Shown: positions 3,778 to 39,002, counted from the first letter of the stretch. The stretch is DNA of 64,000 bases from a virus (IMGVR_UViG_3300012663_000707:6897-70896), one strand, 5' to 3'. The notes: a model not told the origin generated them from the sequence alone. Numbers and translations: made by a program.

Positions 3778-5082
3778 TTAACTAAATGTTAATGAAATTG
3801 GTTGACCAGAAACAAATGATGCTGCTGATGTTACTGTTTGTGTAGCTTGTCCAGTTTGGATAAAAATGAATTCATTTTCAGTATCGACAAGGAATACACC
3901 AGGCGATGTACTCGTATATGTTACAGCATTTGCACCTTGAGTTATAGTTATTGTACCACCATTAGTCGACAATGCTGTAAACTGAGTTGTATAATCTACA
4001 CCAGTACTATCACTTAAATTAAGATAAATTTCATTAGCACCACCTACTTTATTTGGATTAAATGTTTCAGTAACTACATTTTGATTATCTCTGATCAAGA
4101 ATACTGCGTTACCTTGTTGAATTGGTGGCGCTGCATTTAATGCACCTTCATCACTATAGAAGTACCAAGAACCTGATCCTGTTCCACTTGTACCTGAAGT
4201 TCCACTTGTACCTGAAGTTCCACTTGTACCTGAAGTACCATTTCCAGCACCGCTACCAACTATAACATTAATTGAATCTGCATTAGCACCTGTACCCCAT
4301 GTATAAGTATAAGTTCCATCTACAAAACCTACACCTGCTAAAGTTTGATTTCCAAATGTTTGAGTACTTGTAATTTGATCTCCGGTAGTATAACCTACAG
4401 GAACTACTAAATGATGTGGTGGTGCTCCTTGGTAGATAACACCTAATATATCACCACTACTTGAAGTTGAACCAAATCCATTCATTCCTGTTCCAAAATT
4501 AGAAGGAACTGATGTGAATCCCGAATACTCATCATAATATGCTGGAGTTGAACCCATTGCCCACGTTGCAGTATTAATTCCCATACCACCACCACCGAAT
4601 GGCCCGTTATTAGTAGCAACTAGAGTTAAATCATTAATATTAAGTGTACCAGTAGTTGTCATAACAATATCAGATCCAACTTGATCGATAGTTATTGTTA
4701 ATCCACTAGTAGGCGGTGTACCTGAATCTAAACCAAAAGAAGTCCAGAAACCTGCATTGATAAGTGCATTTTTTGCTACTGTTGTATCCGCTGTTGTATA
4801 TGTAGCGTTTAGAAGTTTATTTGCTAAAGTAATAAACGAAGCATCTGTTTTAGCTGGAGATCTCCAAAACCCAACATATGCTGGTTGTCCATCTGCACCC
4901 ATTTGAGGTTGACTAGAAGATCGAGCAACAACATATCCGTTGTCTTCGTCTGGTCCATTCCACCATTTTAAGTTAGTAGCTTCAAAACCACCGGTAGGAT
5001 AACCTACCGCTAGATTTGTAAATTGTTCGGTACCTGCTATATTAGGTCCTAAATTTTTTGTAAAAGGTCTGGCAGTTGCCAT
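3778..5082 (-). CDS. Gly/Thr/Ser-rich repeat protein, fibre-like
   Basis: 434 aa, very Gly/Thr/Ser rich, with a (SGT)n stretch GNGTSGTSGTSGTSGTSGTSGTGSGS encoded by a perfect 18-bp tandem repeat. Confidence 0.55.
   Translation of the reverse strand: MATARPFTKNLGPNIAGTEQFTNLAVGYPTGGFEATNLKWWNGPDEDNGYVVARSSSQPQMGADGQPAYVGFWRSPAKTDASFITLANKLLNATYTTADTTVAKNALINAGFWTSFGLDSGTPPTSGLTITIDQVGSDIVMTTTGTLNINDLTLVATNNGPFGGGGMGINTATWAMGSTPAYYDEYSGFTSVPSNFGTGMNGFGSTSSSGDILGVIYQGAPPHHLVVPVGYTTGDQITSTQTFGNQTLAGVGFVDGTYTYTWGTGANADSINVIVGSGAGNGTSGTSGTSGTSGTSGTSGTGSGSWYFYSDEGALNAAPPIQQGNAVFLIRDNQNVVTETFNPNKVGGANEIYLNLSDSTGVDYTTQFTALSTNGGTITITQGANAVTYTSTSPGVFLVDTENEFIFIQTGQATQTVTSAASFVSGQPISLTFS
4180..4233. repeat. 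perfect 18-bp tandem repeat x3 (gttccacttgtacctgaa) inside the fibre-like gene
   Basis: Seen directly in the sequence; encodes the (SGT) repeats. Confidence 0.85.
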
Positions 5083-13042: not shown

Positions 13043-14251
13043 TTAAAAAAGTGCTGATGCGTAAATAAGATTAGTGTCTAATGTTTGAAGACCAATTGCT
13101 GAAAGAACTCTATTCAAAGGATCGATCATTGATTTCTCGAATTGAATGTCATAATCTACAGGTGGTGCAAATTCATAAGGATGTTCGTTAGGTAGATATG
13201 CATACATCTCTGATATTGGAGACTTGCAATGATAGATCTTTAACTTTTCACCGTTATTAATTACCTTATATTTGGTCTTGTATTTTGTGTTGTTATTCAA
13301 CAAGTAATTGTAGTAACCTGCTGCTTTTACGTTTGCTGGACATTTAAGTCCAATTTGAAGTTCGATCTGATCATCCACAATATACTTATCAATGTTGTTT
13401 GTTCTCTTATTAAAAGAGATGTCATCGATATTTGCCATGTGGAATTCTTTCTTAGTCTCTTTCATGAAGACAACCAACTTCTCTAAATCTGTTGCTGTTG
13501 GTTTAAAGCCGCTTGTAAAAATAAGCTTAAGTGCAGCTACAAGTTTCTCACGAACAAACTTTGGTGTTGAAGATTGAATGGTATCATATCCGATTGTCTT
13601 AACCTTCTTTAAAGGTGGATGACGGTCTGTTGTTTCAAGTTTGTCATCCCATGCAATATTTTGGATATACTTTTTCTTTGCAAGCCAGATACCGTTATAT
13701 GCAATAGTCTCAAGTTCAAATACCAAGAAGTTGTCTGTGTTTCTTTTGTCAGCATAACGCTCCATGGATTTAACAATGTATTCCTTTAGTCTAAAGTGAT
13801 ACAAAGCTAAGATGAATACATCAATGCTCATCTTCTTCTCTTCGTCTAGCCAAACAATTGATTCATACATATCTTGAAACTGAACGTAACAAGAATCTGT
13901 GTCAATGTAAATTACCGCAGGCTTTTCTACTTTACCTTTAACTTTAAGTCCAAACTGTTTATGTACAAGTTCGTCTTTATGCCAAAAGTCATTTACATAT
14001 TTGTTTAAGACTGCTTCGGAATAAAGGATTGCATTCTTACCTTGCTTGGTAATAGATTCTGCAATATTAATGTTAAAGAAGTGGAACCATTTATTACCGA
14101 AAGCTCCGTAGATTGAATTTAGAGTCAGTTTAACTGCTTGTTCATACGCAGTGTACTTAGCAGAAAGCTGCTCATAGTGTTCTATGAGCAGCTCCGCTTC
14201 TTCTTTTGAAAGTTGATCGACTGGTTTATGTTCTAACTCTGTAATATTCAT
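13043..14251 (-). CDS. family-B DNA polymerase, C-terminal fragment (motif B to thumb)
   Basis: Motif B KLTLNSIYGAFGN (KxxxNSxYG) and motif C IYIDTDSCYV (YxDTDS). Begins immediately downstream of the clamp-like gene. Confidence 0.8.
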   Translation of the reverse strand: MNITELEHKPVDQLSKEEAELLIEHYEQLSAKYTAYEQAVKLTLNSIYGAFGNKWFHFFNINIAESITKQGKNAILYSEAVLNKYVNDFWHKDELVHKQFGLKVKGKVEKPAVIYIDTDSCYVQFQDMYESIVWLDEEKKMSIDVFILALYHFRLKEYIVKSMERYADKRNTDNFLVFELETIAYNGIWLAKKKYIQNIAWDDKLETTDRHPPLKKVKTIGYDTIQSSTPKFVREKLVAALKLIFTSGFKPTATDLEKLVVFMKETKKEFHMANIDDISFNKRTNNIDKYIVDDQIELQIGLKCPANVKAAGYYNYLLNNNTKYKTKYKVINNGEKLKIYHCKSPISEMYAYLPNEHPYEFAPPVDYDIQFEKSMIDPLNRVLSAIGLQTLDTNLIYASALF

Positions 14252-15974: not shown

Positions 15975-16027
15975 ATAAAAAGATTAAGATTATTTAGTAA
16001 TTATACGTTGAAACTAGTAAAAGTTTC

Positions 16028-16063
16028 ATAAAAAAAGGGCAAGGAGTAGCGAATTCCTTGCCC
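16028..16063 (-). terminator. rho-independent terminator after nrdA
   Basis: Minus strand GGGCAAGGAATTCGCTACTCCTTGCCC followed by TTTTTTT. Confidence 0.55.
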
Positions 16064-16117
16064 ATGTCCGAAACTATTTCGGTCCTAAGAAGTGGTTTTT
16101 ACACCACCACTATCTTT

Positions 16118-19196: not shown

Positions 19197-19260
19197 TTGC
19201 TAATATTTTTTTATTTTTAACCATAGACCAAAAAAGGTCCTCTTTTCAGTAGACCCATTC

Positions 19261-19344
19261 TAACCTCGATCGAGCAATTCAATAAAAATACTAGCAGCGC
19301 TGCTTGTATTCTATATATCAACGTCTCGATCGAAATTGAGGTTA
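19261..19344 (-). promoter_or_regulatory. structured intergenic element: nested palindromes between the polymerase N-fragment and nrdB
   Basis: taacctcgatcgag (19261-19274) pairs with ctcgatcgaaattgaggtta (19325-19344). A perfect 12-nt palindrome agcagcgctgct sits at the centre (19294-19305). Confidence 0.35.
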
Positions 19345-20745
19345 TGATCTGAATTTTTTCTTTAATTCATCTGCTTTTGTGTAGTAAGAATAAGATGTTT
19401 TCTTGTAATCTTTACGTTGAGCATATAGGTCACTTAAGATTAATTTTAACATTGAATCTTCTTTCTTATATACTACGCCATTTTCACAAACAATAATACT
19501 GTCATCTTTTCTTCTGGCTTCGATCTCTCTTTCTGGAATGATCTCAACATATGAATCGGGCGAGATATTAAATTGTCTCATGATCGAAGGATATAGAGAT
19601 GCAAAGTCAAACGCAGATACTCCAGAGTAATAACCGACAATTGGTTCTTTTACAAAGGCACCTTCATATTTGGTTTCTTTCTTACTATCTTCTTTATCAA
19701 ATTCAACTGCAATCTTCATATTAGAATCTACTAATTTTCTAGCAATTAATGATTCTGTTACTGCCACTGGAGATGCTGCTTTATATAGAGGCATTTTAGT
19801 GATCGTAGCTAATGTAAGTAGTACTTCCATTGATCTTAGTTTACGGTCAATATAGTAAACCAACACGGAATCGACTACGTTATAATATACAAATTTTGTA
19901 AAGTTATCACGATATAGATCTTGTAGAGATCCAGTATATTTGATCTTGCTTACATCCAATACTTGACCAGATACAAAGTCTAATGAGCTGGATTCTTTAA
20001 CAGCAACACTACGGTCATATTTGTCATAAAGTTGCATGTAATCTAGGATTCCCATATGTAATGGTCTACTGTCTGCTTTATCTAAAGCTCCAGTGATTGC
20101 AACTTCAGTAAGATCGATTTGTAGTCTTTTACATCTATTTACAATATACTGCCAGTCATAGTTGATGAAATTCCAACCAGTCATCATTGGAAACTTAGGT
20201 AAGAACTTATGCAAGAATGTATACAACATATTGTACTCATCCTTAAATTTGTAATACGTAAATGTCCAATCTTGATCTAGGTCTTTGAAGTGTGCGTTTG
20301 TATCATCTTCGATCTTTTTAATATCTGCAGCAGATAGATCTTCTAGTCCAAGTACAATTGCTTTACGTTCTGGTGTGATAATTGAGAAGGTTAAAATCCT
20401 ACTCTTAGCTTCTTCTGGCTTTGGAAAACCATCTACGATTTCTGTCTCAATATCGACATAATACGTTCTAGGCATATTGAACTCATAGATCTCATTACGA
20501 TCTTCTTCAGGCAATGAATCCATAAAATACAATAGACTGAACTTGTTAAAAGATCTAGCTCTATTTTTCTTAATGGATCGACCATCCCAGTTTTTAAAAC
20601 GTTGGTCTTTATACTTGTCATTATCTTCTGCAATTACCCAATTTTGGAATTCTTTTACTGGGTATCTTTTGAAGGCAACTTTACCTTCACGATCGTAATA
20701 AGAAACGATCAGTTCTTTTTCGGTTTGTTCAATGTCTAATAGCAT
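19342..20745 (-). CDS. family-B DNA polymerase, N-terminal fragment (3'-5' exonuclease domain through motif A)
   Basis: Exo I YYVDIETEI, an Exo II-like YNVVDS block, and polymerase motif A FDFASLYPSI. Ends in a stop after motif A; motif B resumes in 13043..14251. Confidence 0.8.
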   Translation of the reverse strand: MLLDIEQTEKELIVSYYDREGKVAFKRYPVKEFQNWVIAEDNDKYKDQRFKNWDGRSIKKNRARSFNKFSLLYFMDSLPEEDRNEIYEFNMPRTYYVDIETEIVDGFPKPEEAKSRILTFSIITPERKAIVLGLEDLSAADIKKIEDDTNAHFKDLDQDWTFTYYKFKDEYNMLYTFLHKFLPKFPMMTGWNFINYDWQYIVNRCKRLQIDLTEVAITGALDKADSRPLHMGILDYMQLYDKYDRSVAVKESSSLDFVSGQVLDVSKIKYTGSLQDLYRDNFTKFVYYNVVDSVLVYYIDRKLRSMEVLLTLATITKMPLYKAASPVAVTESLIARKLVDSNMKIAVEFDKEDSKKETKYEGAFVKEPIVGYYSGVSAFDFASLYPSIMRQFNISPDSYVEIIPEREIEARRKDDSIIVCENGVVYKKEDSMLKLILSDLYAQRKDYKKTSYSYYTKADELKKKFRS

Positions 20746-24840: not shown

Positions 24841-25122
24841 TTATAATGGATAATTTGCGTTGTAGATCAACTTGCAATAGAAAGGTAACATCCTTACGTT
24901 AGTACCATCTGCTCTACCGACAGCTTCCATTAATTTGTTATCAACAACTGCTTGTACGAAACTACCTCCAGGAAAACCGATGTTCCATTTTGTACACAAG
25001 ATTGAAGTTCCAATGTTGATGATGTGATCTCGTTCGTCTTCAGAATATTTGTACTCAAATGATTTATCCAAGTAAGCTTCTACAACGTTACGTACTGCTT
25101 TGATTTGATCTACTGTTTCCAT
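24841..25122 (-). CDS. hypothetical protein (93 aa)
   Basis: ORF immediately downstream of intergenic cassette E1. Confidence 0.4.
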   Translation of the reverse strand: METVDQIKAVRNVVEAYLDKSFEYKYSEDERDHIINIGTSILCTKWNIGFPGGSFVQAVVDNKLMEAVGRADGTNVRMLPFYCKLIYNANYPL

Positions 25123-25138
25123 ACTTTATTTGTTTTTT

Positions 25139-25215
25139 GTTACAGTGTAAATATAATAAAAAAGCCTGACATAAAAAAATGTCAGGCCAATTATTTTGCC
25201 AAAAGTTATTAACAA
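25139..25215 (-). repeat. conserved intergenic cassette copy E1 (stop-proximal TTGTTAATAACTTTT box, hairpin terminator, ATTATATTTACAC box)
   Basis: Minus strand TTGTTAATAACTTTTGGCAAAATAATTG-GCCTGACATTTTTTTATGTCAGGC-TTTTTTATTATATTTACACTGTAAC. Near-identical to 32847-32923. Confidence 0.8.
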
Positions 25216-25698
25216 TTACTTTACGTTCTTAAGAACTGTTCTAAGTCTACCGATTGCTGCATCTAATGAACTGTAGATTGGAACGTTGTATCTGCTACAA
25301 ATAACATCTACGTTTCCTTTTCTCCAGAATTCATCCGGACAACAAACGATCATCTTACCGGAAGCAGCGTACAATCCAAGTTCTGCTAAACTAATTGGAC
25401 TCTTAGTTCCTGGTGAGAAGTACATAAAGATGATGTCGCAATTATCTAACATATCCATTTCCCAATTTACTTGTTCGTTGAATTGTGGGTTAGCTTCTGT
25501 TTGTTCCCAACTTGAATCCCAATCATCACGTCTAGGATTTAAAAAGACTATATCTTCACGATCCTGAAATTGATTAGGAATTACCTCTTGCCAATTTTCA
25601 GCAGCTCCCATTTCGATAGATCCTGCTAAGAATATAGTAAGTTGTTTTTGGTCTCCGTATGGGAGTGGTATTTGATTTGGTGCTTTAACTATGTTCAT
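25216..25698 (-). CDS. nucleoside 2-deoxyribosyltransferase-like (NDT/DNPH1 fold) protein
   Basis: IFLAGSIEMG N-terminal motif and SPISLAELGLYAASGKMIV resemble the NDT-family Rossmann-like signature. Confidence 0.45.
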   Translation of the reverse strand: MNIVKAPNQIPLPYGDQKQLTIFLAGSIEMGAAENWQEVIPNQFQDREDIVFLNPRRDDWDSSWEQTEANPQFNEQVNWEMDMLDNCDIIFMYFSPGTKSPISLAELGLYAASGKMIVCCPDEFWRKGNVDVICSRYNVPIYSSLDAAIGRLRTVLKNVK

Positions 25699-25701
25699 AA
25701 T

Positions 25702-25971
25702 TTATTTATTGATTTGATTATGTATCGGGTTTTTACAATTACCTTTATGAGATCCCCATTGAGTTTGTCCAATTCCACCTACAATATATTCACAACCTTC
25801 AAGAGTATAAACTCTATAATTTTGGTCAAAATACTTTGAACTATTGTCTAGTTCCATTTTATGCGGATTTGATTGAGTCGAAACTTGTACGTTGCCTTCG
25901 CAACTTGTAACCATAAAGGCTACAAGTGCTGCAAAGATCAATAAGAATAGAGTTATATTTTTTCTGTTCAT
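25702..25971 (-). CDS. small secreted lipoprotein (89 aa)
   Basis: Signal peptide with lipobox LVAFMVTSC; cysteine-containing mature part. Confidence 0.5.
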   Translation of the reverse strand: MNRKNITLFLLIFAALVAFMVTSCEGNVQVSTQSNPHKMELDNSSKYFDQNYRVYTLEGCEYIVGGIGQTQWGSHKGNCKNPIHNQINK

Positions 25972-27470
25972 TTAGCAGATTTTAAACGTTCTCTGATTTC
26001 AGTTAATGTTGTTTGGTTTTCAAAGAAACCATTTCTATAAATAGTCTGTAATTCACCTTTTGCCTCATCTTCCCATGAACATTGATCCAGTAAAATTAAT
26101 AATCCAGCGGAGTTATATACACTCAACAATCCAGTTGCTGATTTCTTTGTCCCATCATCTGTAATTGGGTCTTTAAAGATTTGTCTACCTTCGCCATTAA
26201 CATCAACATACGTTGCTTTCATTGCGAAACCAAATGTGTCTCTGGTATTGTATTGGTATGTGAATGAACCTACACCTAAAACGATGTTTGTACTTGCAAA
26301 TCCTTTTGCTTCTAAACGCTTACAGATTTCTTCAGCTCTTTCAATTGTAATTGAGTCTCCGTAGATTGCTCCGATATGAGAGTCAAGAACTTTGTAACCT
26401 TGTTCGTTGATAGTTCCTCCGAAAACATCCCAAAGTAATTCAATAACACCTTTCTTTTCAGGACTATCAGAATTAGTGATTACATTATCATCGCCAAATG
26501 TTGCTTTATTTGATTGAATCCATGATGAATTATCATAACCACAAATAATATCGACCGGATCACCAGAGTCAGGTCTAATAACTACTTTACCATCACGAGC
26601 TAAAATCTCTTCTTTCAAAGTAACTACGTGTTCGGTACAAACTTTCCATAAGTCCCAAGTATCTGATACGATTGAAAGAATTCCTGTTGGATATGTTTCC
26701 ATCAAGTTTCTAAATGTTCCAACCTCATCTTCTTTAGATCCAGCGCACATAACTGAATGTTCAGTTGCATTCACACTTCCACAAACAGTATCTGTTGCAC
26801 CATAAAATTTACGTGCTCCATAAATTGTTGGTAAACTATCTGAACCTAAGAAACTTGTTAAGTGACCAAGACCTGAAGAGATTACTGCCTCCACTGAATC
26901 CATACCTCTCATTGAGAAATCATGTCCTTGCCAATCAATAAACCATCCGCGCTCAGCATCAGTTTTTTCTTGCCATTTGGTCAATACCTTACGGTAAGTA
27001 TGGGCAATAGTTGCAGAAGTCATTGGTTTCCATAACAAGTTTGAAAGGATAGTTTCCAAGTAATTTGTTACCCAATAGAAATCTGGATGTGTATTATAGA
27101 TTGTTAATACAGGAACTTTGATAGGAACTAATGTACCTTCTGGAAGAGCTTTAACCGCGATTGGCAAATAACCTAGATCATGTAGGGCTTCAAAGTGACT
27201 AACATCATAATCAGTTCCAAGGTACATTGATAACTCACGTTTCATTTCTCCACAAACCTCATCTTTTGGTTTGCTAAAGAAATCCTTCTCAAAAGATTCG
27301 TGAATTTGCTTCATTACCATTTGTTGTCCAAACGATACTAATTGGTCGCAACCCTTTGGTGCATACTTGTTACTTCTTGGTGTGAAGTTTGAATAAACCA
27401 ACGTAGTTCCTTTTGGATATTGTTGGTGGTGTCCTGTTTTGTACCCGTCTGTTAAAAATAATGGATTCAT
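25968..27470 (-). CDS. nadV: nicotinamide phosphoribosyltransferase family (NadV/NAMPT-like; could equally be the Namat type)
   Basis: N-terminus MNPLFLTDGYKTGHHQQYP is typical of NAMPT; 500 aa. Confidence 0.85.
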   Translation of the reverse strand: MNPLFLTDGYKTGHHQQYPKGTTLVYSNFTPRSNKYAPKGCDQLVSFGQQMVMKQIHESFEKDFFSKPKDEVCGEMKRELSMYLGTDYDVSHFEALHDLGYLPIAVKALPEGTLVPIKVPVLTIYNTHPDFYWVTNYLETILSNLLWKPMTSATIAHTYRKVLTKWQEKTDAERGWFIDWQGHDFSMRGMDSVEAVISSGLGHLTSFLGSDSLPTIYGARKFYGATDTVCGSVNATEHSVMCAGSKEDEVGTFRNLMETYPTGILSIVSDTWDLWKVCTEHVVTLKEEILARDGKVVIRPDSGDPVDIICGYDNSSWIQSNKATFGDDNVITNSDSPEKKGVIELLWDVFGGTINEQGYKVLDSHIGAIYGDSITIERAEEICKRLEAKGFASTNIVLGVGSFTYQYNTRDTFGFAMKATYVDVNGEGRQIFKDPITDDGTKKSATGLLSVYNSAGLLILLDQCSWEDEAKGELQTIYRNGFFENQTTLTEIRERLKSAK

Positions 27471-27490
27471 ATGTTTATTGTTTTAATTTT

Positions 27491-27565
27491 GATATGTAAA
27501 TATAATCAATTTATTTTGATCCCGAAAACATTTTTCAATTTATTTTCAAAAAGTTATTAACAATC
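27491..27565 (-). repeat. intergenic cassette copy E5 (hairpin replaced by a duplicated AAAATAAATTGA segment)
   Basis: Shares the TTGTTAATAACTTTTTGAAAATAA and ATTATATTTACA boxes with E1-E4. Confidence 0.6.
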
Positions 27566-28015
27566 TACAAGATTCGCCAAAACACTTTTTACCATGCCAA
27601 TCTCTGCACGACCTTGGTATCTTTTATTAAATTCACCAATAGTTTTACCTTGCAAAGCCTGTGGATTTGTAATAGTAACAGACAAATCCTGTAGAATTTC
27701 CTTTAAAGCCAATACAATCTCATCAGCTGTCATTTGAGCTGGCATATATCTTCTAAGAACTGCACTTTCATCTGCCTCTTTTTTCGCCAATTCTGGTCGA
27801 TTTGCAACATCATACATTTTTTGGGCATCCTCTCTGGTCTTGATCGCTTTATTAACGATTTTAATAATCTCAGCATCGGTTGCAACCCAAGTTCCATTGT
27901 TTTTTTCAGCAACCTGGATTGCTGCTTTAATACTACCTAATGCATCCTTTGCATTTGTGTCTTTTGCTTTGTATGCAGCAATATAATCTGCATCTATTCT
28001 TTCTTTAATTGTCAT
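27557..28015 (-). CDS. GatB/YqeY domain protein
   Basis: 152 aa helical protein whose pattern (IKERIDADYIAAYKAKD...LGSIKAAIQ...) is typical of YqeY-like proteins. Confidence 0.65.
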   Translation of the reverse strand: MTIKERIDADYIAAYKAKDTNAKDALGSIKAAIQVAEKNNGTWVATDAEIIKIVNKAIKTREDAQKMYDVANRPELAKKEADESAVLRRYMPAQMTADEIVLALKEILQDLSVTITNPQALQGKTIGEFNKRYQGRAEIGMVKSVLANLVDC

Positions 28016-28021
28016 CTTTCT

Positions 28022-28237
28022 TTATTTTATGTTTTCTAATGGGTATGCGTTTAAAATGAAATTTTTATCATTAAGATGGTCCCAAGTACCTTCAGGTAAT
28101 TCATATTCTGCTTGAGAATCTACAGCCTTTAATGCTTGTTCAACATGGTACCTTGCAAATAATACACCAAATTCTTTCCAGTCGAATGCGTATTTACCGT
28201 TTTCACTGATATGGTCTAAAAAATCTTCTGCTGTCAT
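28022..28237 (-). CDS. hypothetical small protein (71 aa)
   Basis: ORF in the operon. Confidence 0.35.
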   Translation of the reverse strand: MTAEDFLDHISENGKYAFDWKEFGVLFARYHVEQALKAVDSQAEYELPEGTWDHLNDKNFILNAYPLENIK

Positions 28238-28243
28238 CTTTCT

Positions 28244-28450
28244 TTAGTTTTTTCTGATTCCTGTTACCATAACGTATTTAAACGTTCCATCCTTTTTAAA
28301 CATATGCTGAATAAATGTTACATCATACGTTTTAAATCCATTGTCAAATTCCATTGTTATTTGTTCATCGATTAATGGTTTTTCAACTTCACAAATAAAA
28401 TCACTTTCACAGACTCCACCATTCATTAAAACAAATCTACACCTTGTCAT
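28244..28450 (-). CDS. hypothetical small protein (68 aa)
   Basis: ORF in the operon, overlapping the Thg1-like gene end. Confidence 0.35.
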   Translation of the reverse strand: MTRCRFVLMNGGVCESDFICEVEKPLIDEQITMEFDNGFKTYDVTFIQHMFKKDGTFKYVMVTGIRKN

Positions 28451-29378
28451 AATCTATATTTTTAGATGGGTTTAATAGTCCTTTAATAAAAAATCTGTCT
28501 TGTGTAAATGTTGGAGTTTCAATAACTTTCCATTTGTTTCGCTTTACAATTTGATTTGGATCGATCATATGAGTTTTACCATCATTAACAAATTTTGTTG
28601 TAGTTGATCCAATCGTAACAACTTCTACTTTACCAATCACAGCACCTCTTTTCTTACGAAAATCATAATCATTCCAGTTGATTCCCTTTTGAAAAATCAT
28701 CTCTTGCATCTGATCTGTCTTTACACCATTTAATTCTTTTGGACTATAAAGACTTTGTGCAACTGAAGAGATACTGTTTCGTACAGCGTCTTGTTGTCTC
28801 CAAATAAAATAGTTTTCAACTTCATCAATGAATGGAATTTGAAAAGCTCTGGCATCAAATTGAGCCATTTTGAATTTTTGAATTTCATTCTCAGTTAATA
28901 AGTTTTCAACATAGTCTCCCATGATGTCATTACATGCTCTTATTAATCTTAAACGATTAAATTCAGAAGTTGCCATAGAGGCAGCAACACTTACCATTTT
29001 CTGTAAGTTATTGTCAAACCATGCATGAGTTCCTAATTCATCAAAGTCTGTTAGGACTAAACTAATCTCATCTGATTGTACGTAACCAAACTTGGCACCT
29101 TGGATATTTTTACATAGATATGCAGTAGTTGCATTCATGTCTTCAATAAGTCCTTGGTCAAATGGTCGTTCTAATCCTCGAGTGTAAGTGTGGAATGCTT
29201 TTCCGTCAATACGGATAATTGTGAATGTTCTCCTTGGGAGCTTGATTCTAGTTCTATCTTCGTAGAACTCTTTCATACGGTCGCCTAATGCGTCTTTCAT
29301 AATATATGTTATTGTGCAACCTTCGTTAGTTGGATGCTGGTTATGTTCTTTATACTTAGAACATTTGTTTTGTTTCAA
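28437..29378 (-). CDS. Thg1-like protein (tRNA-His guanylyltransferase / 3'-5' nucleotidyltransferase family)
   Basis: IIRIDGKAFHTYTRGLERPFD, GYVQSDEISLVL and the downstream block match Thg1 motifs VVRIDGKKFH..., ..GESDEYSF... Probable true start is the internal MKDALG at about 29300, which clears the adjacent tRNA-like gene. Confidence 0.75.
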   Translation of the reverse strand: MKQNKCSKYKEHNQHPTNEGCTITYIMKDALGDRMKEFYEDRTRIKLPRRTFTIIRIDGKAFHTYTRGLERPFDQGLIEDMNATTAYLCKNIQGAKFGYVQSDEISLVLTDFDELGTHAWFDNNLQKMVSVAASMATSEFNRLRLIRACNDIMGDYVENLLTENEIQKFKMAQFDARAFQIPFIDEVENYFIWRQQDAVRNSISSVAQSLYSPKELNGVKTDQMQEMIFQKGINWNDYDFRKKRGAVIGKVEVVTIGSTTTKFVNDGKTHMIDPNQIVKRNKWKVIETPTFTQDRFFIKGLLNPSKNIDYDKV

Positions 29379-29380
29379 AT

Positions 29381-29505
29381 TGTAGTCAGGACAGGATTCG
29401 AACCTGTGATAGTCTCCATCAGCACATTGATAAAGCAGAGACTCCGTAGCAGTTGGGGAACTTACTCAATGTTTCGGGGCGTGTTTCCATCTCGCCACCT
29501 GACTA
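29381..29505 (-). tRNA. tRNA-like gene, atypically long (about 125 nt)
   Basis: Minus strand has T-arm ACAGG-TTCGAAT-CCTGT, a 3' acceptor strand CCTGACT+A, and a perfectly complementary 5' end TAGTCAGG. The D-arm-like GGCG/CGCC is present. The body is too long for a canonical tRNA, suggesting an insertion or intron, or a tRNA-like stable RNA. Confidence 0.4.
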
Positions 29506-29661
29506 TATTGACTTTAAGAGCACGTTGTTCTTTGCATCTCTTTGATATTCTCCGCGGTTAGTCAAACCGGATATAAATTTGTTATATCAGCAGTCCCATG
29601 CAGGTAATCACCCTGCTTCTCATCATATTAGGCATACTATTCGGTGATGAACCGAACCGTG

Positions 29662-29741
29662 TCGTCAGGGCCGGACTCGAACCGGATAAGCAACCATTTA
29701 ACTGGATTCGGGGACCAATCCCTCATTACGCCCACCTGACT
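29662..29741 (-). tRNA. tRNA-like gene (80 nt) with GGTTCGAGTCC T-loop region
   Basis: Minus strand AGTCAGGTGGGCG...CCGGTTCGAGTCCGGCCCTGACGA. Six of seven acceptor pairs are Watson-Crick, and the 5' end is identical to that of the first tRNA-like gene. The anticodon arm could not be assigned by eye. Confidence 0.45.
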
Positions 29742-29870
29742 ATTTTAGCTGTTTATTCCGCTTCTTTTTTTTCAGTTACTTCAACTTCAATTTCCTTTAA
29801 AACATAAGTAGATCCTAAGATTACATCATGTTCAAGTACTACTACTTCAATTGTTTCTTTCTTGCTCATA

Positions 29871-30785
29871 TTAAAATACATTAAATTGTGTTACTAAATT
29901 AGGTTTTGTTATACTTGATCCTTTACTATTTGTAGTAGAAGCTTTATCTCCGGATACTTTAGATTCAATATCTTCATAAGAATTAGTGCAGAATATGCCA
30001 TCAAATAATTCATTAAGATCATGGAATCCACTACTAAAAATACCGTGAGTGACCACCAAATAAATTTTAGCAGTTGGGCGTCCTTCTTTAATCGCCTTTG
30101 CCAATTCAACGAATGTTCTACCTCCGTCGCAAATATCATCCACGATTACATATTTAATATCATCATGTTGATTTAATACTGGGATCTCAGTTCTAAGAAT
30201 ATTTCCGGTTCTCATATCCCTTACTTTATTTGCAGTAATGATATTGTTAATGCCGAATTTCTTAGCAACATCAAAGATCTTTTTGTAGGCTCCAGCATCT
30301 GGACTTACTAAGCAGATGCGTGATTGAGCATCGTTTTTGTTGTCTATAGCGGTAAGAGCATATTTGACTAATAGATGATTGTCCACTTTGTCATAGTTGT
30401 TTAGGCATGCCTCTAATACATCTGAGTGCGGATCTAGAGTTAAGACTGTACTTAAGTTTAATGAATTGATGATTGGGCAAATAACTTGCTTTAAGTAGTT
30501 AACTCCGCCATCAACAAATTTACGGTCTGAACGAGCTCCTAAGAAATAAGGAACATAAAGTGCAATCTCTTTGTTTGGTACGATGTTACGTATCGCTTGC
30601 ACTGCGCAGATAAGTAATTCTACGTCTCCGAATGAATTCAAACGAGTGCTTAATTTAACTGCATCGTCATTATTCATCAAAATACTCCAACTTGTAAGAT
30701 CTACAGTTTGTTGTCCGTCAGGAAACTTACTGATCTTATACTTGATTTGAGATTTTTCTTGATCGATTAAATTTAATGTTATCAT
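29871..30785 (-). CDS. prs: ribose-phosphate pyrophosphokinase family (Prs; possibly ADP-ribose pyrophosphokinase Adps-type)
   Basis: PRPP-binding loop YVIVDDICDGGRTF; 304 aa; a two-domain PRTase-like layout. Confidence 0.8.
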   Translation of the reverse strand: MITLNLIDQEKSQIKYKISKFPDGQQTVDLTSWSILMNNDDAVKLSTRLNSFGDVELLICAVQAIRNIVPNKEIALYVPYFLGARSDRKFVDGGVNYLKQVICPIINSLNLSTVLTLDPHSDVLEACLNNYDKVDNHLLVKYALTAIDNKNDAQSRICLVSPDAGAYKKIFDVAKKFGINNIITANKVRDMRTGNILRTEIPVLNQHDDIKYVIVDDICDGGRTFVELAKAIKEGRPTAKIYLVVTHGIFSSGFHDLNELFDGIFCTNSYEDIESKVSGDKASTTNSKGSSITKPNLVTQFNVF

Positions 30786-30800
30786 GTGTTTGTTTGTTTG

Positions 30801-30875
30801 TATAGTGTAAATATAATAAAAAAGATTGACAATTAAAAATTTATTTGCAATTATTTTGCAAAAGTTATTAACAAT
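30801..30875 (-). repeat. intergenic cassette copy E2 (hairpin degenerate)
   Basis: TTGTTAATAACTTTTGCAAAATAATTG ... TTTTTTATTATATTTACAC boxes conserved. Confidence 0.7.
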
Positions 30876-31473
30876 TTTCTAAGCTATCTGGGTAATACAA
30901 GAGAGTTGGATTCTTCTTCTGAATGTCAACCTCCGGGTATTGTTTCTTGAATGCCAAAACATCGAAGCGATCTGTAATCAAATGGAAACCATTTTTAGTA
31001 GGAATGACAAATTTAGTCTTTGGTCCTTCTGGCTTACATTTGTTAATAGTAACTTGAATGTTACGTAACTCTTGCATGTCTTTCGTATCAATATCGACGA
31101 TCCAAAGTTTCTCTTTAGTCTTAATTTGCCCAACAACAGAGTCGAATAAACCTTTTTGGTTATGGTTACCATCTTGGATCCTCTGTGCTAATTGAACCAT
31201 CATATTTAAACTGACATCAAAGTGGTTTTGTTTCTGTACATGGATGTAAGCTCTGGCTTTAAACATTTCACAAAGCTGCATGATCTCATCATATCTTCTT
31301 TCTAAGTGATCAATGCTTTCAATACAATAAGTACTGATTGTTCTTACCGATTGATGGTTGTCTCTTTCTCCTTCTGGTTGATCCTTCTTACGCTTAAAAA
31401 CATAAAGCATATAGAAGTCTCCTTTGTTTTCAAAGTTTAAGAGATGTTTGATTATTTCTAGATTGTTTATCAT
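30868..31473 (-). CDS. hypothetical protein (201 aa)
   Basis: ORF flanked by cassettes E2 and E3. Confidence 0.5.
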   Translation of the reverse strand: MINNLEIIKHLLNFENKGDFYMLYVFKRKKDQPEGERDNHQSVRTISTYCIESIDHLERRYDEIMQLCEMFKARAYIHVQKQNHFDVSLNMMVQLAQRIQDGNHNQKGLFDSVVGQIKTKEKLWIVDIDTKDMQELRNIQVTINKCKPEGPKTKFVIPTKNGFHLITDRFDVLAFKKQYPEVDIQKKNPTLLYYPDSLENC

Positions 31474-31485
31474 CTTGTTCGTTTG

Positions 31486-31565
31486 TTACAGTACAAATAT
31501 AATAAAAAAGCCTGAGACTAAAAAATCTCAGGCAAATTATTTTGTAAAAGTTATTAACAATTTTA
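31486..31565 (-). repeat. intergenic cassette copy E3 (hairpin carries compensatory substitutions)
   Basis: Hairpin GCCTGAGATTTTTTAGTCTCAGGC differs from E1/E4 GCCTGACAT...ATGTCAGGC by paired changes that preserve the stem. Confidence 0.8.
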
Positions 31566-32423
31566 TTTGATGCCAATCATTGCATTGGTTTTATCACCTA
31601 ACATTGTTTCTGGTAATTTACCATTCCATTTGTTAATCCACTCAAGTTGAAGCAACATTGGCGTAATGGTCTTCTGTTTTAGACTATTTGCCTCCGCTTC
31701 AGCTTTTGCACCGGTTAACATTGCCTGAGCATTACCATTTGCGGTTGCAATTTTGATCTTGGCTTGTGCCTCCGCTGTCTTAACTTCATTTTCAGCTCGT
31801 AATGCTGCTTGTACTGCATTGTTCTTAGCTTCAATTGATTTCTTAAACGTTTCAGGATAGACCAAGTTTGATGTGAATTGATTAATGACAAAGCCTTCGG
31901 TCAATAATTGCCCTTCCAATAGTCTACGTACTTCAATTTCAAATAGTGCACGATTAGAAATTAGATCATCTGCGGTATACTTGTTCGTAGCTAATCGGAA
32001 CGCATCATAAACTGCAGTCTTTAAGAAACCTTCTTCAATCTCTGGCAAACTTCTGCGGTATTTAGAGAAGATCTGTGGTACTTTCTCTCGTGCGATTGAG
32101 TAGTTAATGATCGGACTTACATGGAACTCAGATCCATCCTTTGAGTTAACTACGAATGATTCGTCTGCTACAACTACACCTTCTTCTACGACTTGCTTAT
32201 ACTCTTTGTGCTGCATAAAGATTGGAAACTCATAGATCTTTTGTGTAAACGGGTTAAAGAATGCCCAACCTGTAACTTCGGTAACATCTGAGACTCCTTT
32301 GCTAGATCCATACATGTTTACCTTTACTCCAACGTGACCTGCATCAATACGTTCACATGAGTTAATTCCTAGAGTTAATCCTGCAAGGATAATTACTCCT
32401 ACTAAAATTGCTTTGATTTTCAT
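31563..32423 (-). CDS. SPFH/band-7 (prohibitin/HflK-like) lipoprotein
   Basis: Signal peptide plus lipobox LGINSC; the downstream GHVGVKVNMYG... region and Ala/Glu-rich coiled-coil tail are typical of an SPFH domain. Confidence 0.55.
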   Translation of the reverse strand: MKIKAILVGVIILAGLTLGINSCERIDAGHVGVKVNMYGSSKGVSDVTEVTGWAFFNPFTQKIYEFPIFMQHKEYKQVVEEGVVVADESFVVNSKDGSEFHVSPIINYSIAREKVPQIFSKYRRSLPEIEEGFLKTAVYDAFRLATNKYTADDLISNRALFEIEVRRLLEGQLLTEGFVINQFTSNLVYPETFKKSIEAKNNAVQAALRAENEVKTAEAQAKIKIATANGNAQAMLTGAKAEAEANSLKQKTITPMLLQLEWINKWNGKLPETMLGDKTNAMIGIK

Positions 32424-32425
32424 TT

Positions 32426-32632
32426 TTATTTGTTTTTACGGTTTAAAATTTTAATACCTAAATCTGCTAATGTGTATCCGATGAATACTCCAATAGTTGC
32501 TACGATTGCAGTGCCTGACCAAAAGGAAACTGTACTCTTTTTATTCATTAACTCAAATCCAAAGGTTAAGAGTTCTACTGATGCGATACCAGCTAGGAAA
32601 TAAACTATCCCTGTAATTATGTTCTTTTTCAT
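32426..32632 (-). CDS. small membrane protein (68 aa, two TM)
   Basis: IITGIVYFLAGIASVELLTFGF and TAIVATIGVFIGYTLADL. Confidence 0.4.
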   Translation of the reverse strand: MKKNIITGIVYFLAGIASVELLTFGFELMNKKSTVSFWSGTAIVATIGVFIGYTLADLGIKILNRKNK

Positions 32633-32668
32633 GTATGTTGTATTGTATGTTACCGGTTTTGTTCCAAA

Positions 32669-32836
32669 TTAATCCTGATCGGTTGGATCTTCTTTGTGTC
32701 TTGTTTTACGAGAATAGACATTCATGTTACCATGATCCCGAGTAATCATCTTACGTCGAATAATAGCCGAGACATGTCGGTCCGATAATCCATTTAAGTT
32801 TGGATTTGGTTTATTCTTTTTATTTTTCTTTGCCAT
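32669..32836 (-). CDS. small highly basic protein (55 aa), not in the ORF track
   Basis: Manual translation MAKKNKKNKPNPNLNGLSDRHVSAIIRRKMITRDHGNMNVYSRKTRHKEDPTDQD. Starts about 10 nt downstream of cassette E4. Confidence 0.35.
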   Translation of the reverse strand: MAKKNKKNKPNPNLNGLSDRHVSAIIRRKMITRDHGNMNVYSRKTRHKEDPTDQD

Positions 32837-32846
32837 TGTGTTTTAG

Positions 32847-32923
32847 TTACAGTGTAAATATAATAAAAAAGCCTGACATAAAAAAATGTCAGGCCAATTA
32901 TTTTGAAAAAGTTATTAACAATC
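32847..32923 (-). repeat. intergenic cassette copy E4
   Basis: Near-identical to E1, including the GCCTGACAT-TTTTTTT-ATGTCAGGC hairpin. Confidence 0.8.
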
Positions 32924-33535
32924 TTATCTAAAGTCTGCGTTAACTTTAAACTTTCTATTCTTAATGATGTCGTTCATCTTGTTAGAAAGATATGCTAGGA
33001 TCTCCATCTGAGCATTCTTTGCTGCTTCATCAATTGAATCTTCAGCCATATCTTCTTTAAAGTCTTCCCAGTTGTTATCTGTATCATTGTACCATTGTTC
33101 GAAAGCATCTACAAGTTCGTCAGCAGGCTCCATTAAACTTGGTAGTTCAATAAATTCTTCATTGACTTTTTTTGTTGTTTGTGTTTTGCTATTTATAAAA
33201 GATTCGAAATTCATAGTCTTTTTTATTTTTTTCATTCTTTTTTTGTATTCTTCTTCAGCATCACCTTTACCTGCTGGTTTATCACCAGATCCAGGTTCTG
33301 TTTGTGTTGGAAATGCTGGTGCACCCATACCATGCATACTTGCTGGTGTTATATTCTCTTTTACCTCAGGTAAATTATCATGCTTTGTGCTAGCAAAGTC
33401 TTTTAATTGCTGTAAAGTCATTGAGTCGGCTAAGTCTTTAACCTCTTGGCTTGCCTCTTTAGGATCTAGATCACCTTTCTTATAGGCATAAGCCATACCC
33501 ATTAATCTTTGTTGTACTTTACTAGTTGCTGGCAT
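32924..33535 (-). CDS. hypothetical protein with conserved MPATSKVQQRLMGMAYAYKKG N-terminus and an internal CTS-like MNFESFINS
   Basis: 203 aa. The N-terminal 20 residues look like a conserved phage-family signature; the second half begins with the F-E-S-F-I-N motif. Confidence 0.5.
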   Translation of the reverse strand: MPATSKVQQRLMGMAYAYKKGDLDPKEASQEVKDLADSMTLQQLKDFASTKHDNLPEVKENITPASMHGMGAPAFPTQTEPGSGDKPAGKGDAEEEYKKRMKKIKKTMNFESFINSKTQTTKKVNEEFIELPSLMEPADELVDAFEQWYNDTDNNWEDFKEDMAEDSIDEAAKNAQMEILAYLSNKMNDIIKNRKFKVNADFR

Positions 33536-37601: not shown

Positions 37602-39002
37602 TTATCTACCGTATTTAATGATACCCATTAGTTGGTTAATTGCAGCAAAGGTACCTGTTAATTTGTAAGTATGTCCTTTGTATCTGAATACTAGGCCTTC
37701 TGTCGGAATGATGGATTGTACACCACCGATTCTATCCAATCTAGCAAGTTCAGATTCTACTTTATCTATCTGTTTTTGGTCACCGCCTTTTCTAACGTTT
37801 TCAGCTGCATTTTTAATCTCGTTATGCAACCTTTGCATTTCTTTATCTGGTGACAAAGCTAAAAAGTTAGAAGCATTTTTAAGGATGATCGAACCTAGTT
37901 CTAAGAAAATATCTTCAAAAGGTCTAATGTTTTCTTTATACTTCTTTTTTGCATCTTCTTTATCAAATTGCTTGATTGCAGCTTCTTGTTCTTTGCTTAA
38001 AGACTTTCCTAAATCTCTTAGATTCAAAGTCTTCTTGTCATCGTAAGCCCATCTTAACATTAAACCTTCTTTAATGTCTTGTGGCATTTCTCCAAAGATA
38101 GCATCGATTTGTTCTCTCCACCACATTTCGTGGTATTTAGAAACTGGATCTGAATCCATTAAACCATATTGGTCTCTTAATGCTTCGATCTTTTTGATAA
38201 ATTTATCTTTGTTAGTATCAAAGTCGATGTCTTTTCTTAGTTGAATGATTTGTGGGGGAATTATTGTAAATTTAGAACCTACGTTTGCATTCAATTCTTT
38301 TAATACTTTAGCGATCTCTGACGCAGCTTTAGGCTGTTCATTAATGATATTACCTTCGCCATCAGTTTCTTTAATACCATGGAACTGGATCACATCTACA
38401 TCATAATGAATTACATTAGGATTAAGTGAATAGATCAACTCCATGTTCATAAAGTTCTTTCCATTTTGGAAAGTGCTATCTTGTACACCTTTTGGAAGTC
38501 TAATTAATAGACTTGCCAAATCCGCTGCTGCGAATTGAAAAGTATCTTGTACTAATTTGCTAGGGTGTCCTTCAAACTTAGATTGGAAATCAGCAAGAGA
38601 CATCGGTAATTTCATATCACCTTTATTTCTTGCAAATTTAACTTCACCATCTTGGATAGTAGCAAATACATTTTGACCATCTGTTTTTTCAGTCGGTTGC
38701 TCTTCAAAATTAAGTTCACCTTGTAAACCTGATTCTGCCATAGCTTTTAAATCGCCGAAAGTCAAATCCTTATTATCAAATGGGTGTGACATGTGTCCTG
38801 CTGCACCACCTTCTAATACAAGTTGGTTAAACATTTTAGCTTCATATGTTTGTACAAAGCCTTCTGTTAAAAATTGATCTAAGTTAAGTAATTTCATTTC
38901 TTTATAATCTATTAAAGACCCAGTTGCCCAGGTCTTTTGTTTTGTTTGTTTTATTAAGCTTCTTGTGAAATCATTGCTTGAATAACATTGCTTGAGATCC
39001 AA
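37602..39002 (-). CDS. hypothetical protein with KxDG nucleotidyltransferase-like motif (ligase-like candidate), CTS-like MKLLNLDQFLTEG near the N-terminus
   Basis: EKTDGQNVFATIQDGEVKF resembles ligase/capping motif I (KxDG); other ligase motifs were not confidently located. Confidence 0.3.
   Translation of the reverse strand: MDLKQCYSSNDFTRSLIKQTKQKTWATGSLIDYKEMKLLNLDQFLTEGFVQTYEAKMFNQLVLEGGAAGHMSHPFDNKDLTFGDLKAMAESGLQGELNFEEQPTEKTDGQNVFATIQDGEVKFARNKGDMKLPMSLADFQSKFEGHPSKLVQDTFQFAAADLASLLIRLPKGVQDSTFQNGKNFMNMELIYSLNPNVIHYDVDVIQFHGIKETDGEGNIINEQPKAASEIAKVLKELNANVGSKFTIIPPQIIQLRKDIDFDTNKDKFIKKIEALRDQYGLMDSDPVSKYHEMWWREQIDAIFGEMPQDIKEGLMLRWAYDDKKTLNLRDLGKSLSKEQEAAIKQFDKEDAKKKYKENIRPFEDIFLELGSIILKNASNFLALSPDKEMQRLHNEIKNAAENVRKGGDQKQIDKVESELARLDRIGGVQSIIPTEGLVFRYKGHTYKLTGTFAAINQLMGIIKYGR

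Follow-up and report, generated by a model that had tools for sequence, protein, structure and literature searches.

The 64,000-nucleotide stretch of viral DNA IMGVR_UViG_3300012663_000707:6897-70896, referred to below as the window, carries five copies of a conserved cassette of about 85 bp, each placed between two genes and directly before the start of the second one. We propose that this cassette is a compact intergenic promoter of the Bacteroidota type, which has a helically phased distal module and an optional terminator and which would act mainly at the level of DNA; we give this reading a probability of roughly 0.7. An earlier note on this DNA had compared the repeats with the promoter-early-stem-loop (PeSL) cassettes of T4-type phages. 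Evidence for our reading includes a TTTT-N20-TATATTTA arrangement present in all five copies and in a family of related cassettes, a distal box whose distance to the core promoter changes in steps of one helical turn, and a hairpin that is built around the upstream promoter element in only some of the copies.

Five copies of the cassette in the window

The sequence TTGTTAATAACTTTT occurs exactly five times in the window, always on the minus strand (25201-25215, 27549-27563, 30860-30874, 31546-31560 and 32907-32921), and when up to two mismatches are allowed there are 8 matches against 1.3 expected, which none of 100 shuffled sequences reached. The AT-rich box TTATTATATTTACAC is found at these same five sites with 0-2 mismatches. 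An nhmmer profile built from the copies returns the five with E values of 1e-12 to 1e-20, while the next-best match in the 64 kb has E = 0.75, and profiles of the distal or the proximal part alone each match solely the five sites. The number of copies given in the earlier note thus stood, but the orientation as written, the hairpin in every copy and the copy said to carry a stem variant did not. The cassette lies on the minus strand, and the quoted sequences are reverse complements of the plus strand; nearly all large open reading frames (ORFs) are on the minus strand, and therefore the cassette is read as the reverse complement of the plus strand.

At its upstream end, each copy adjoins or overlaps a stop codon, that of the preceding minus-strand ORF, as had been noticed before; in E2 and E3 this stop is the TAA of the distal box itself, and in E1, E4 and E5 it lies 0-2 nt upstream of the box. 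Downstream, a start codon follows 15-22 nt past TTATTATATTTACAC, in line with the placement before an ATG that had been described. In the alignment of the copies, a sharp 5' edge at ATTGTTAATAAC directly follows or overlaps the upstream stop, and conservation declines toward the ATG. All five copies belong to what we call type I, characterized by the distal box GTTAATAAC. E1 (25123-25215, minus, with hairpin) lies between the stop of a deoxyribosyltransferase-like ORF (25216-25698) and the ATG of an ORF of 93 amino acids (aa; 24841-25122), and E2 (27471-27564, minus, no hairpin) between a YqeY-like ORF (27557-28015) and NadV (25968-27470). E3 (30786-30875, minus, no stable hairpin) stands between a 201-aa ORF (30868-31473), whose stop is inside the box, and a Prs-like ORF (29871-30785), and E4 (31474-31562, minus) between an SPFH ORF (31563-32423) and the 201-aa ORF. 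E5 (32837-32923, minus, with hairpin) is located between a DUF3008 ORF (32924-33535) and a 55-aa ORF (32669-32836), which is followed by a membrane ORF and the SPFH ORF. The cassettes are found directly before the starts of NadV, Prs, SPFH, the 201-aa protein and other accessory genes, as the earlier note had suggested. E1 and E5 share about 60 identical nt.

Phage lineage and spread of the cassette

The window has a GC content of 34%, and the minus strand carries all ORFs of at least 100 aa, except for a few that overlap longer minus-strand ORFs. Megablast of a 10-kb region against 50,697 phage records returned no match, so the window is without a close DNA relative there. The family-B DNA polymerase of the window is nearest to that of the uncultured phage LR756500 (462 kb), with 46% amino acid identity, followed by those of other huge phages and the Prevotella Lak megaphages. 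A 1222-aa protein (phrog_29329; 58522-62190, minus), which is a handy lineage marker, is common to only 31 phage records, namely Lak phages, uncultured huge phages, Tenacibaculum phages PTm1, PTm5 and pT24, Chryseobacterium phages MA9V-1 and MA9V-2, Flavobacterium phage MaF61, and PAU. Only 1 of the 61 window genes has a Shine-Dalgarno (SD)-like 4-mer upstream, compared with 8% of random positions; the leaders are rich in A, which occupies position -3 in 61% of genes. Leadered mRNAs, the lack of an SD sequence and A-rich starts are the translation signature of Bacteroidota (PMC6847099). Because the polymerase, the 1222-aa protein and the SD-less A-rich starts all point there, the phage is, as judged from its sequence, a member of a Bacteroidota jumbo-phage lineage and not T4-type.

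Relatives of the cassette were collected in two ways. A 16-mer scan of viral contigs gave at least 120 loci, but an exact 16-mer is unspecific in AT-rich viromes and a profile is therefore needed; in 55 of these loci, 87 profile matches extended past the 16-mer to the entire architecture. These motif-selected contigs are short loci, too short to be assigned to the lineage of the window. Independently of the motif, viral contigs with lengths up to 288 kb yielded 317 NadV relatives, from which 80 loci (1.28 Mb) were taken without motif selection. The refined profile gave 227 matches in 100 loci. In the NadV clade, 102 of 102 matches were on the gene strand (114 with the window's own strand counted in), and every classified site was intergenic. 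The resulting family set from viral contigs comprises 151 unique full-length cassettes; in about 70% of them no more than 8 nt separate the box from the upstream stop codon, and in 32 the box's own TAA serves as the stop. The family is common across a large clade of jumbo phages, most of them uncultured.

Among cultured phages, MA9V-1 and MA9V-2 gave 9 and 12 blastn matches to the cassette consensus, and 40 kb of MA9V-2 contained seven proximal halves, each with its own upstream terminator. In the same 40 kb, the sole copy of the GTTAATAAC box (OR513085, 38202-38292) is located directly before MA9V2_076, a gene annotated as an RNA polymerase sigma factor, and the -7 box of this copy is the host-like TATATTTG. 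No homologue of this sigma factor was found in the 64-kb window or in the relatives' loci (1.3 Mb, partial genomes). When one genome each from 185,579 bacterial and archaeal species was searched, the composite distal motif was found in 6 contigs, 5 of which are Bacteroidota metagenome-assembled genomes (MAGs). A host in the Bacteroidota is consistently indicated by the SD-less A-rich starts, the proximal halves in the MA9V phages, the MAG matches and the marker protein of the clade.

Proposed core promoter and leader

In Bacteroidota, the promoter consensus consists of a weak -33 TTTG, a spacer of 19-21 bp and a -7 TAnnTTTG, with the transcription start site 4-5 nt after the -7 box (PMC6847099). 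The candidate -7 box of E1 is TATATTTA at 25148-25155 (minus), and those of the other copies are at 27497-27504, 30808-30815, 31494-31501 (E4, TATATTTG) and 32855-32862, all on the minus strand. Compared with TAnnTTTG, E4 matches at 8 of 8 positions, and E1, E2, E3 and E5 match at 7 of 8, the mismatch being at the near-invariant G-5; the family consensus of this box is TTATATTTAC. A candidate -33 element, TTTT, was located by profiles and by hand count at 25176-25179 in E1 (minus) and is present at 27525-27528, 30836-30839, 31522-31525 and 32883-32886 in the other copies (minus), whether or not there is a hairpin. The TATATTTA/G sequence would fit the Bacteroidota -7 box, and TTTT-N20-TATATTTA, which is shared by all five copies and the family, would fit the -33/-7 geometry.

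The ATG is 26-34 nt downstream of the -7 TA in the five copies, and in the 151 full-length cassettes this distance peaks at 32 nt and is mostly 30-36 nt, which implies a leader of about 15-22 nt. TAAAA, which is often present in the leader, has been proposed as a ribosome-binding motif in Flavobacterium (PMC2483708). With the housekeeping promoters of Bacteroidota recognized by sigma-ABfr (PMC6847099), the cassette shares TAnnTTT(G/A), predicted leadered mRNAs that lack an SD sequence, A-rich starts and a T-rich stretch some 20 bp upstream of the box, but it differs from them in the prevalence of A at -5, in a larger number of conserved positions (TTTTnnATGTCAAA..TTATATTTACATATAAT) and in its distal modules. 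On these grounds, both promoter activity and recognition by a host-type sigma factor are predicted for the cassette.

A sigma-70 promoter was also considered and rejected. The scan of the window gave 26 sites against 38.8 expected from shuffles, and there was no consistent -35/N17/-10 arrangement in the cassettes, where lone weak matches (9/12) in E1 and E3 were not consistent across copies. The sequence GATATATA occurs seven times in the window, always on the minus strand, which is the gene strand (2698, 6478, 19312, 40350, 44832, 45991 and 51526), mostly 15-30 nt before starts; as a second promoter class it was discarded, because such a number arises by chance, 22 of 100 shuffled sequences having 7 or more. 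In the literature, we found no promoter motifs for phages of Flavobacterium, Cellulophaga or Tenacibaculum and nothing relevant to the cassette motif strings, and the words promoter, sigma, terminator and intergenic are all absent from the MA9V-2 paper.

Distal box and its phased spacing

The second conserved part of the cassette lies upstream of the core promoter. In E1 the distal box TTGTTAATAACTTTT occupies 25201-25215 (minus), and its core GTTAaTAAC is a perfect 4+1+4 palindrome, symmetric at 7/9 positions each side; in each of the five copies, 57-58 bp separate the G of this core from the -7 TA downstream. The high-information blocks of the 151 cassettes are AAATTGTTAATAACTTTT and TTATATTTAC, the latter preceded by an ATTTT at a distance of about 24 nt, and core variants are GTTCGTAAC (10 cases) and its reverse complement GTTACGAAC (1 case). 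From the distal box to the -7 box, the spacing takes quantised values of 37 bp (5 cassettes), 47 bp (28), 57 bp (100) and 67 bp (3) among the 151, which is a helical-phase signature at the sequence level. A distal-only profile at E<=1e-3 was too strict to classify sites, and a regular expression was used instead; counting by this expression alone gives the same spacing peaks, with the unselected loci included. GTTnnnAAC at the quantised distances was found at 32 of 77 unselected promoters, against about 1.6 by chance.

Spacing in helical-turn steps suggests that protein and DNA meet along a single face of the helix. UP elements such as that of rrnB P1 and CRP class I sites are known to tolerate changes of position only in helical-turn steps, and they resemble the cassette in having A/T-tract sequence upstream of a core promoter. 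The cassette differs from both in its 9-bp palindromic core, conserved at nearly 2 bits, at about -69 to -61. We infer that the distal module is bound by a protein, either as a UP-like contact or as an activator site.

A second distal module was observed with the same core promoter, made of 2-3 TTTAACA repeats with an 11-bp period (AAACTTTAACATAATTTTAACAC), for example in the related loci L141 (5156-5289), L149 (12249) and L128 (11291). This module is present on most other promoters of the same phages, coexists with the GTTAATAAC type in one phage and is absent from the window. Since other promoters carry a different distal module, the distal module appears to be interchangeable.

Hairpin and predicted terminator

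The earlier note had assigned a hairpin followed by a T-run to every copy. A GC-rich stem-loop with a T-run is present in E1, E4 and E5, for which folding is far more stable than expected (z = -5.5, -5.2 and -4.7; 0 of 200 shuffles as stable), but not in E2 and E3, which fold no better than shuffled sequences (z = +0.15 and -0.09). The hairpin of E1 is GGCCTGACA-T7A-TGTCAGGCT at 25163-25188 (minus), with the loop TTTT at the -33 register, and an identical hairpin is found in E5 at 32870-32895 (minus). The variant in E4 (GAGA/TCTC) is GCCTGAGA-TTTTTTAG-TCTCAGGC at 31510-31533 (minus); in all three cases a T-run follows. The stems of E4 (GCCTGAGA/TCTCAGGC) and of E1 and E5 (GCCTGACA/TGTCAGGC) are related by paired C>G and G>C changes, so the compensatory change reported earlier is real, although it is carried by the fourth copy (31486-31565) and not by the third. 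A terminator scan called E1, E4 and E5 alone among the copies terminator-like; the calls were made on both strands because of the A-tract upstream of the hairpin.

In the family, 49 of 139 cassettes (35%) have a hairpin, and the distribution of folding energies is bimodal. The stems are highly diverse (CCTGACA, CCCGAGA, GCCCAGA, GCCAAACA, CTCCAGA and others) but are all in a single register, followed by T5-8. In an alignment of 35 copies, which were picked for having a hairpin, 7 of 9 pairs change on both sides; none of 500 shuffles reached this score, and it collapsed in slid controls. The loop of the hairpin is the -33 TTTT and its T-run is the promoter spacer, and copies without a hairpin hold TTTT at the same register. 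Free positions on either side of the -33 element therefore apparently provide the bases of the terminator. Like Rho-independent terminators, this structure combines a T-run and a short loop with a GC-rich stem of 8-11 pairs, and terminator activity of the hairpin copies is thus plausible; unlike them, it overlaps the next promoter, and most copies do without it. Stand-alone GC hairpins with T-runs were also observed on the minus strand in gaps of the window that have no cassette (38898-38953, 15975-16117, 19197-19341 and 1303-1484); examples are GACCTGGGCAACTGGGTC-TTT and AACCCGTTTGGAAACAGACGGGTTTTTTT, which look like ordinary terminators at other gene boundaries.

Cassettes and exchange of gene blocks

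The neighbourhood of NadV is highly mosaic, and the sequence before this gene varies among the relatives: some have a complete cassette, some just its proximal half and some variant boxes, while in others there is no cassette and Prs or a different gene is directly adjacent. When cassette-flanked gene content was compared among related phages, as the earlier note had proposed, homology breakpoints proved to be enriched 2-3 fold at cassettes, piling up at both edges. Of the homology ends between related loci, 13-22% are at cassettes, which make up 2-3% of the sequence, and of the intergenic ends 17-27% are at cassettes, against 7.5-10% of junctions with a cassette (p = 1e-7 to 1e-3, for pairs that are not independent). 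In the window itself, homology blocks end at 25215/25216 (E1), at 27558-27562 and 27475-27504 (E2), and at 31562 and 31484 (E4), and the SPFH block is on the opposite side of NadV in the related loci L147 and L148. The gene upstream of E2 is shared with L147 (78% identity against a baseline of 60%), whereas the proximal half of E2 is shared with L128 and L149 (82% and 78%, against 65% for L147), which indicates that the interior of E2 is exchanged independently of its flanks. At 98% identity, the loci L162-L165 hold a 1086-nt cassette-led block of two genes between two conserved genes, where L141 has a single cassette; the cassettes flanking this block differ in type, and a simple repeat-mediated deletion is thus not proven.

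The copies within one phage also resemble each other. At the free positions of the cassette, 60% of bases are identical within a locus and 41% between loci (0 of 2000 permutations as high). This within-genome likeness, together with the 60 or so identical nucleotides of E1 and E5, indicates duplication or gene conversion within genomes, and the identical stretch of E1 and E5 is a possible recombination substrate, for instance for mini-circles like those excised between tandem PeSLs. A reading of the cassettes as transposon-like units with terminal inverted repeats was dropped: inspection of the cassette ends revealed no repeats, and orientation and ATG distance are fixed.

Relation to PeSL cassettes

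In T4-like phages, a PeSL consists of an AT-rich region and a stem-loop just upstream of a sigma-70-like -35/N17/-10 promoter, followed by an SD sequence and a start codon, and PeSLs sit in hyperplastic regions beside indels (Comeau et al. 2014, PMC4122927). The cassette shares with them the repeated composite of terminator and promoter right before start codons (Arbiol et al. 2010, PMC2839356; PMC4122927), the concentration among variable accessory genes near indels and replacements, and within-genome copies that are similar enough to recombine. However, its promoter is of the Bacteroidota -33/-7 type and not sigma-70 -35/N17/-10, it has no SD sequence although the start codon is at a fixed distance, and its hairpin is optional (3/5 copies, 35% of the family) and wraps the -33 element rather than preceding the promoter. 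It also has the extra distal GTTAATAAC box, which is its most conserved part and is helically phased, and it belongs to a different phage lineage with a different host phylum. From the comparison in the earlier note, the composite regulatory cassette, the stem covariation and the match between cassette edges and exchanged blocks therefore hold, whereas the phage is not T4-type and the sigma-70 promoter and SD sequence of a PeSL are absent. With its Bacteroidota-type promoter, the cassette would work like a PeSL without being a member of that family; it is an analogue made of different parts in another lineage.

Proposed explanation and alternatives

We propose that the cassette works as follows. 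The distal module ATTGTTAATAACTTTT-n-CAAAATAATT combines an A-tract with the palindromic GTTAaTAAC core. Because its distance to the core promoter steps by one helical turn, it probably serves as an upstream activating site; it would be contacted by a dimeric DNA-binding protein or, in a UP-like manner, by RNA polymerase. The core promoter would comprise TTTT at the -33 register, 20 bp, and TATATTTA/G at -7, and the transcript would begin with an A-rich, SD-less leader of about 15-22 nt that ends at the ATG. In three of the five copies, complementary free bases flanking the -33 TTTT would form a GC stem with a T-run on the read-through RNA, that is, an intrinsic terminator, so that a stretch of about 85 bp may both close one transcription unit and open the following one. 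The copies, with up to about 60 identical nt, would offer portable homology for the exchange or loss of gene blocks, and such exchange may be a by-product of the cassettes rather than their purpose.

Several observations weigh against this explanation. At position -5 of the -7 box, where G is nearly invariant, most copies have A (TATATTTAC), so that the full TAnnTTTG is matched by E4 alone, and the -33 element reads TTTT instead of TTTG. The core is also more conserved than is usual for host promoters, which could mean a phage-encoded sigma factor rather than the host sigma-A. Conservation of the distal box is partly circular in the first 120 loci, which were chosen by the distal 16-mer, and the unselected NadV loci correct for this. 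Samples of pT24 (50 kb), MaF61 (50 kb) and LR756500 (25 kb) revealed no cassette. As for gene-block exchange, rearrangement was no more frequent at cassette junctions in a coarse gene-adjacency test (p = 0.37), which has no power and was replaced by the nucleotide-level breakpoints; moreover, neither end lies at a cassette in 30 of 48 indels. The breakpoints at promoter edges could stem from selection that keeps transcription units intact, and not from recombination driven by the cassettes.

One alternative is that the core is a promoter for a phage-encoded sigma factor or a phage-modified polymerase, of a middle or late class instead of an early class read by host sigma-A, with the distal box in a phage-specific circuit. 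We regard this as unlikely, yet as an alternative to be taken seriously. The information content of the core above that of usual host promoters and the deviation at G-5 are in its favour, as is MA9V-2, whose annotated sigma gene is preceded by the one distal-box copy there, a copy with the host-like TATATTTG; the near absence of the composite distal motif from bacterial genomes also fits. However, neither the window nor the 1.3 Mb of relatives' loci, from partial genomes, has a sigma homologue, the downstream nucleotide-metabolism and accessory genes are typical of early or middle expression, and the cassette agrees with the host type in its leader and -7 geometry. Genes on one strand with very short gaps, covarying hairpin stems and an A-rich leader at a fixed ATG distance would also suit an RNA-level intercistronic element of a long polycistronic transcript, acting as a processing, stability or translation-initiation signal and having no promoter of its own. 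This is improbable when set against the lack of a stable structure in two of the five copies and in 65% of the family, the location of the strongest conservation in unpaired boxes that match a DNA promoter element, and the absence of a matching family in Rfam; the 10-bp quantised spacing, too, belongs to double-helical DNA and not to RNA.

Alternatively, the distal palindrome might be the target of a site-specific recombinase or nuclease, and the cassettes the ends of a mobile gene-cassette system in which regulation is secondary. The sharp 5' edge right after upstream stops, with the TAA of the box used as the stop in 32 cassettes, the block boundaries at cassette edges and the palindromic core would agree with such a system, but no recombinase or nuclease is consistently adjacent, most indels are away from cassettes, many promoters in the same phages use the other distal module or none, and the fixed promoter phase and ATG distance are left unexplained; we consider this very improbable. 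We give next to no credence to a true PeSL with a T4-type early sigma-70 promoter and an upstream stem-loop. The similar layout (AT-rich region, stem-loop, promoter, start), the position between accessory genes and the tie to indels make it attractive, but the tests made contradict it, since the sigma-70 scan stayed below expectation, SD sequences are missing, the lineage is that of Bacteroidota jumbo phages and the hairpin surrounds the -33 element rather than preceding the promoter.

Going beyond the Bacteroidota-type promoter cassette that we favour, one may tentatively speculate, as a less probable extension, that it belongs to a modular system through which uncultured Bacteroidota jumbo phages, forming a large clade, express their genes. 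In such a system, a shared core promoter would be combined with swappable distal operators (type I, GTTAATAAC; type II, TTTAACA repeats) that answer to phage-encoded regulators and define separate regulons, with an optional terminator around the -33 element. The cassettes might double as homology that moves cassette-led gene units, as a recombinase-free counterpart of gene cassettes.

Other features of the window

Three further observations concern other parts of the window. The family-B DNA polymerase is apparently split into two genes about 5 kb apart (19342-20745 and 13043-14251, both minus), of which the N-terminal part corresponds to positions 89-495 and the C-terminal part to positions 491-841 of phrog_262; the genes for the large and small subunits of ribonucleotide reductase are located between the two parts. 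A 122-nt match that fully covers the Rfam tRNA model (29383-29504, minus; 28.4 bits against a gathering score of 29, E = 0.014) lies in a 570-nt gap (29301-29870) beside a Thg1-like gene, a tRNA-His guanylyltransferase homologue (28437-29378), whereas ARAGORN found no tRNA anywhere in the window; a tRNA gene interrupted by some 50 extra nt, or else a tRNA-like element, could explain the match. Finally, an 18-nt unit, GTTCCACTTGTACCTGAA, is present in 3-4 tandem copies at 4171-4243, inside a 434-aa ORF (3778-5082, minus), which implies a hexapeptide repeat.

Significance

Almost nothing is known about the transcription signals of the jumbo and mega phages of Bacteroidota, which are related to the Lak phages and mostly uncultured. 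The cassette could serve as an annotation key for transcription units across hundreds of metagenomic phage genomes, and it is a candidate for a strong, portable expression part in the genetics of Bacteroidota, where parts from Escherichia coli fail. These predictions can be tested in MA9V-1 and MA9V-2, which are in culture and carry the proximal half. More generally, the cassette would extend the idea behind PeSLs, namely that such cassettes mark and perhaps mediate the exchange of gene blocks, to a second, unrelated phage lineage with another type of promoter.

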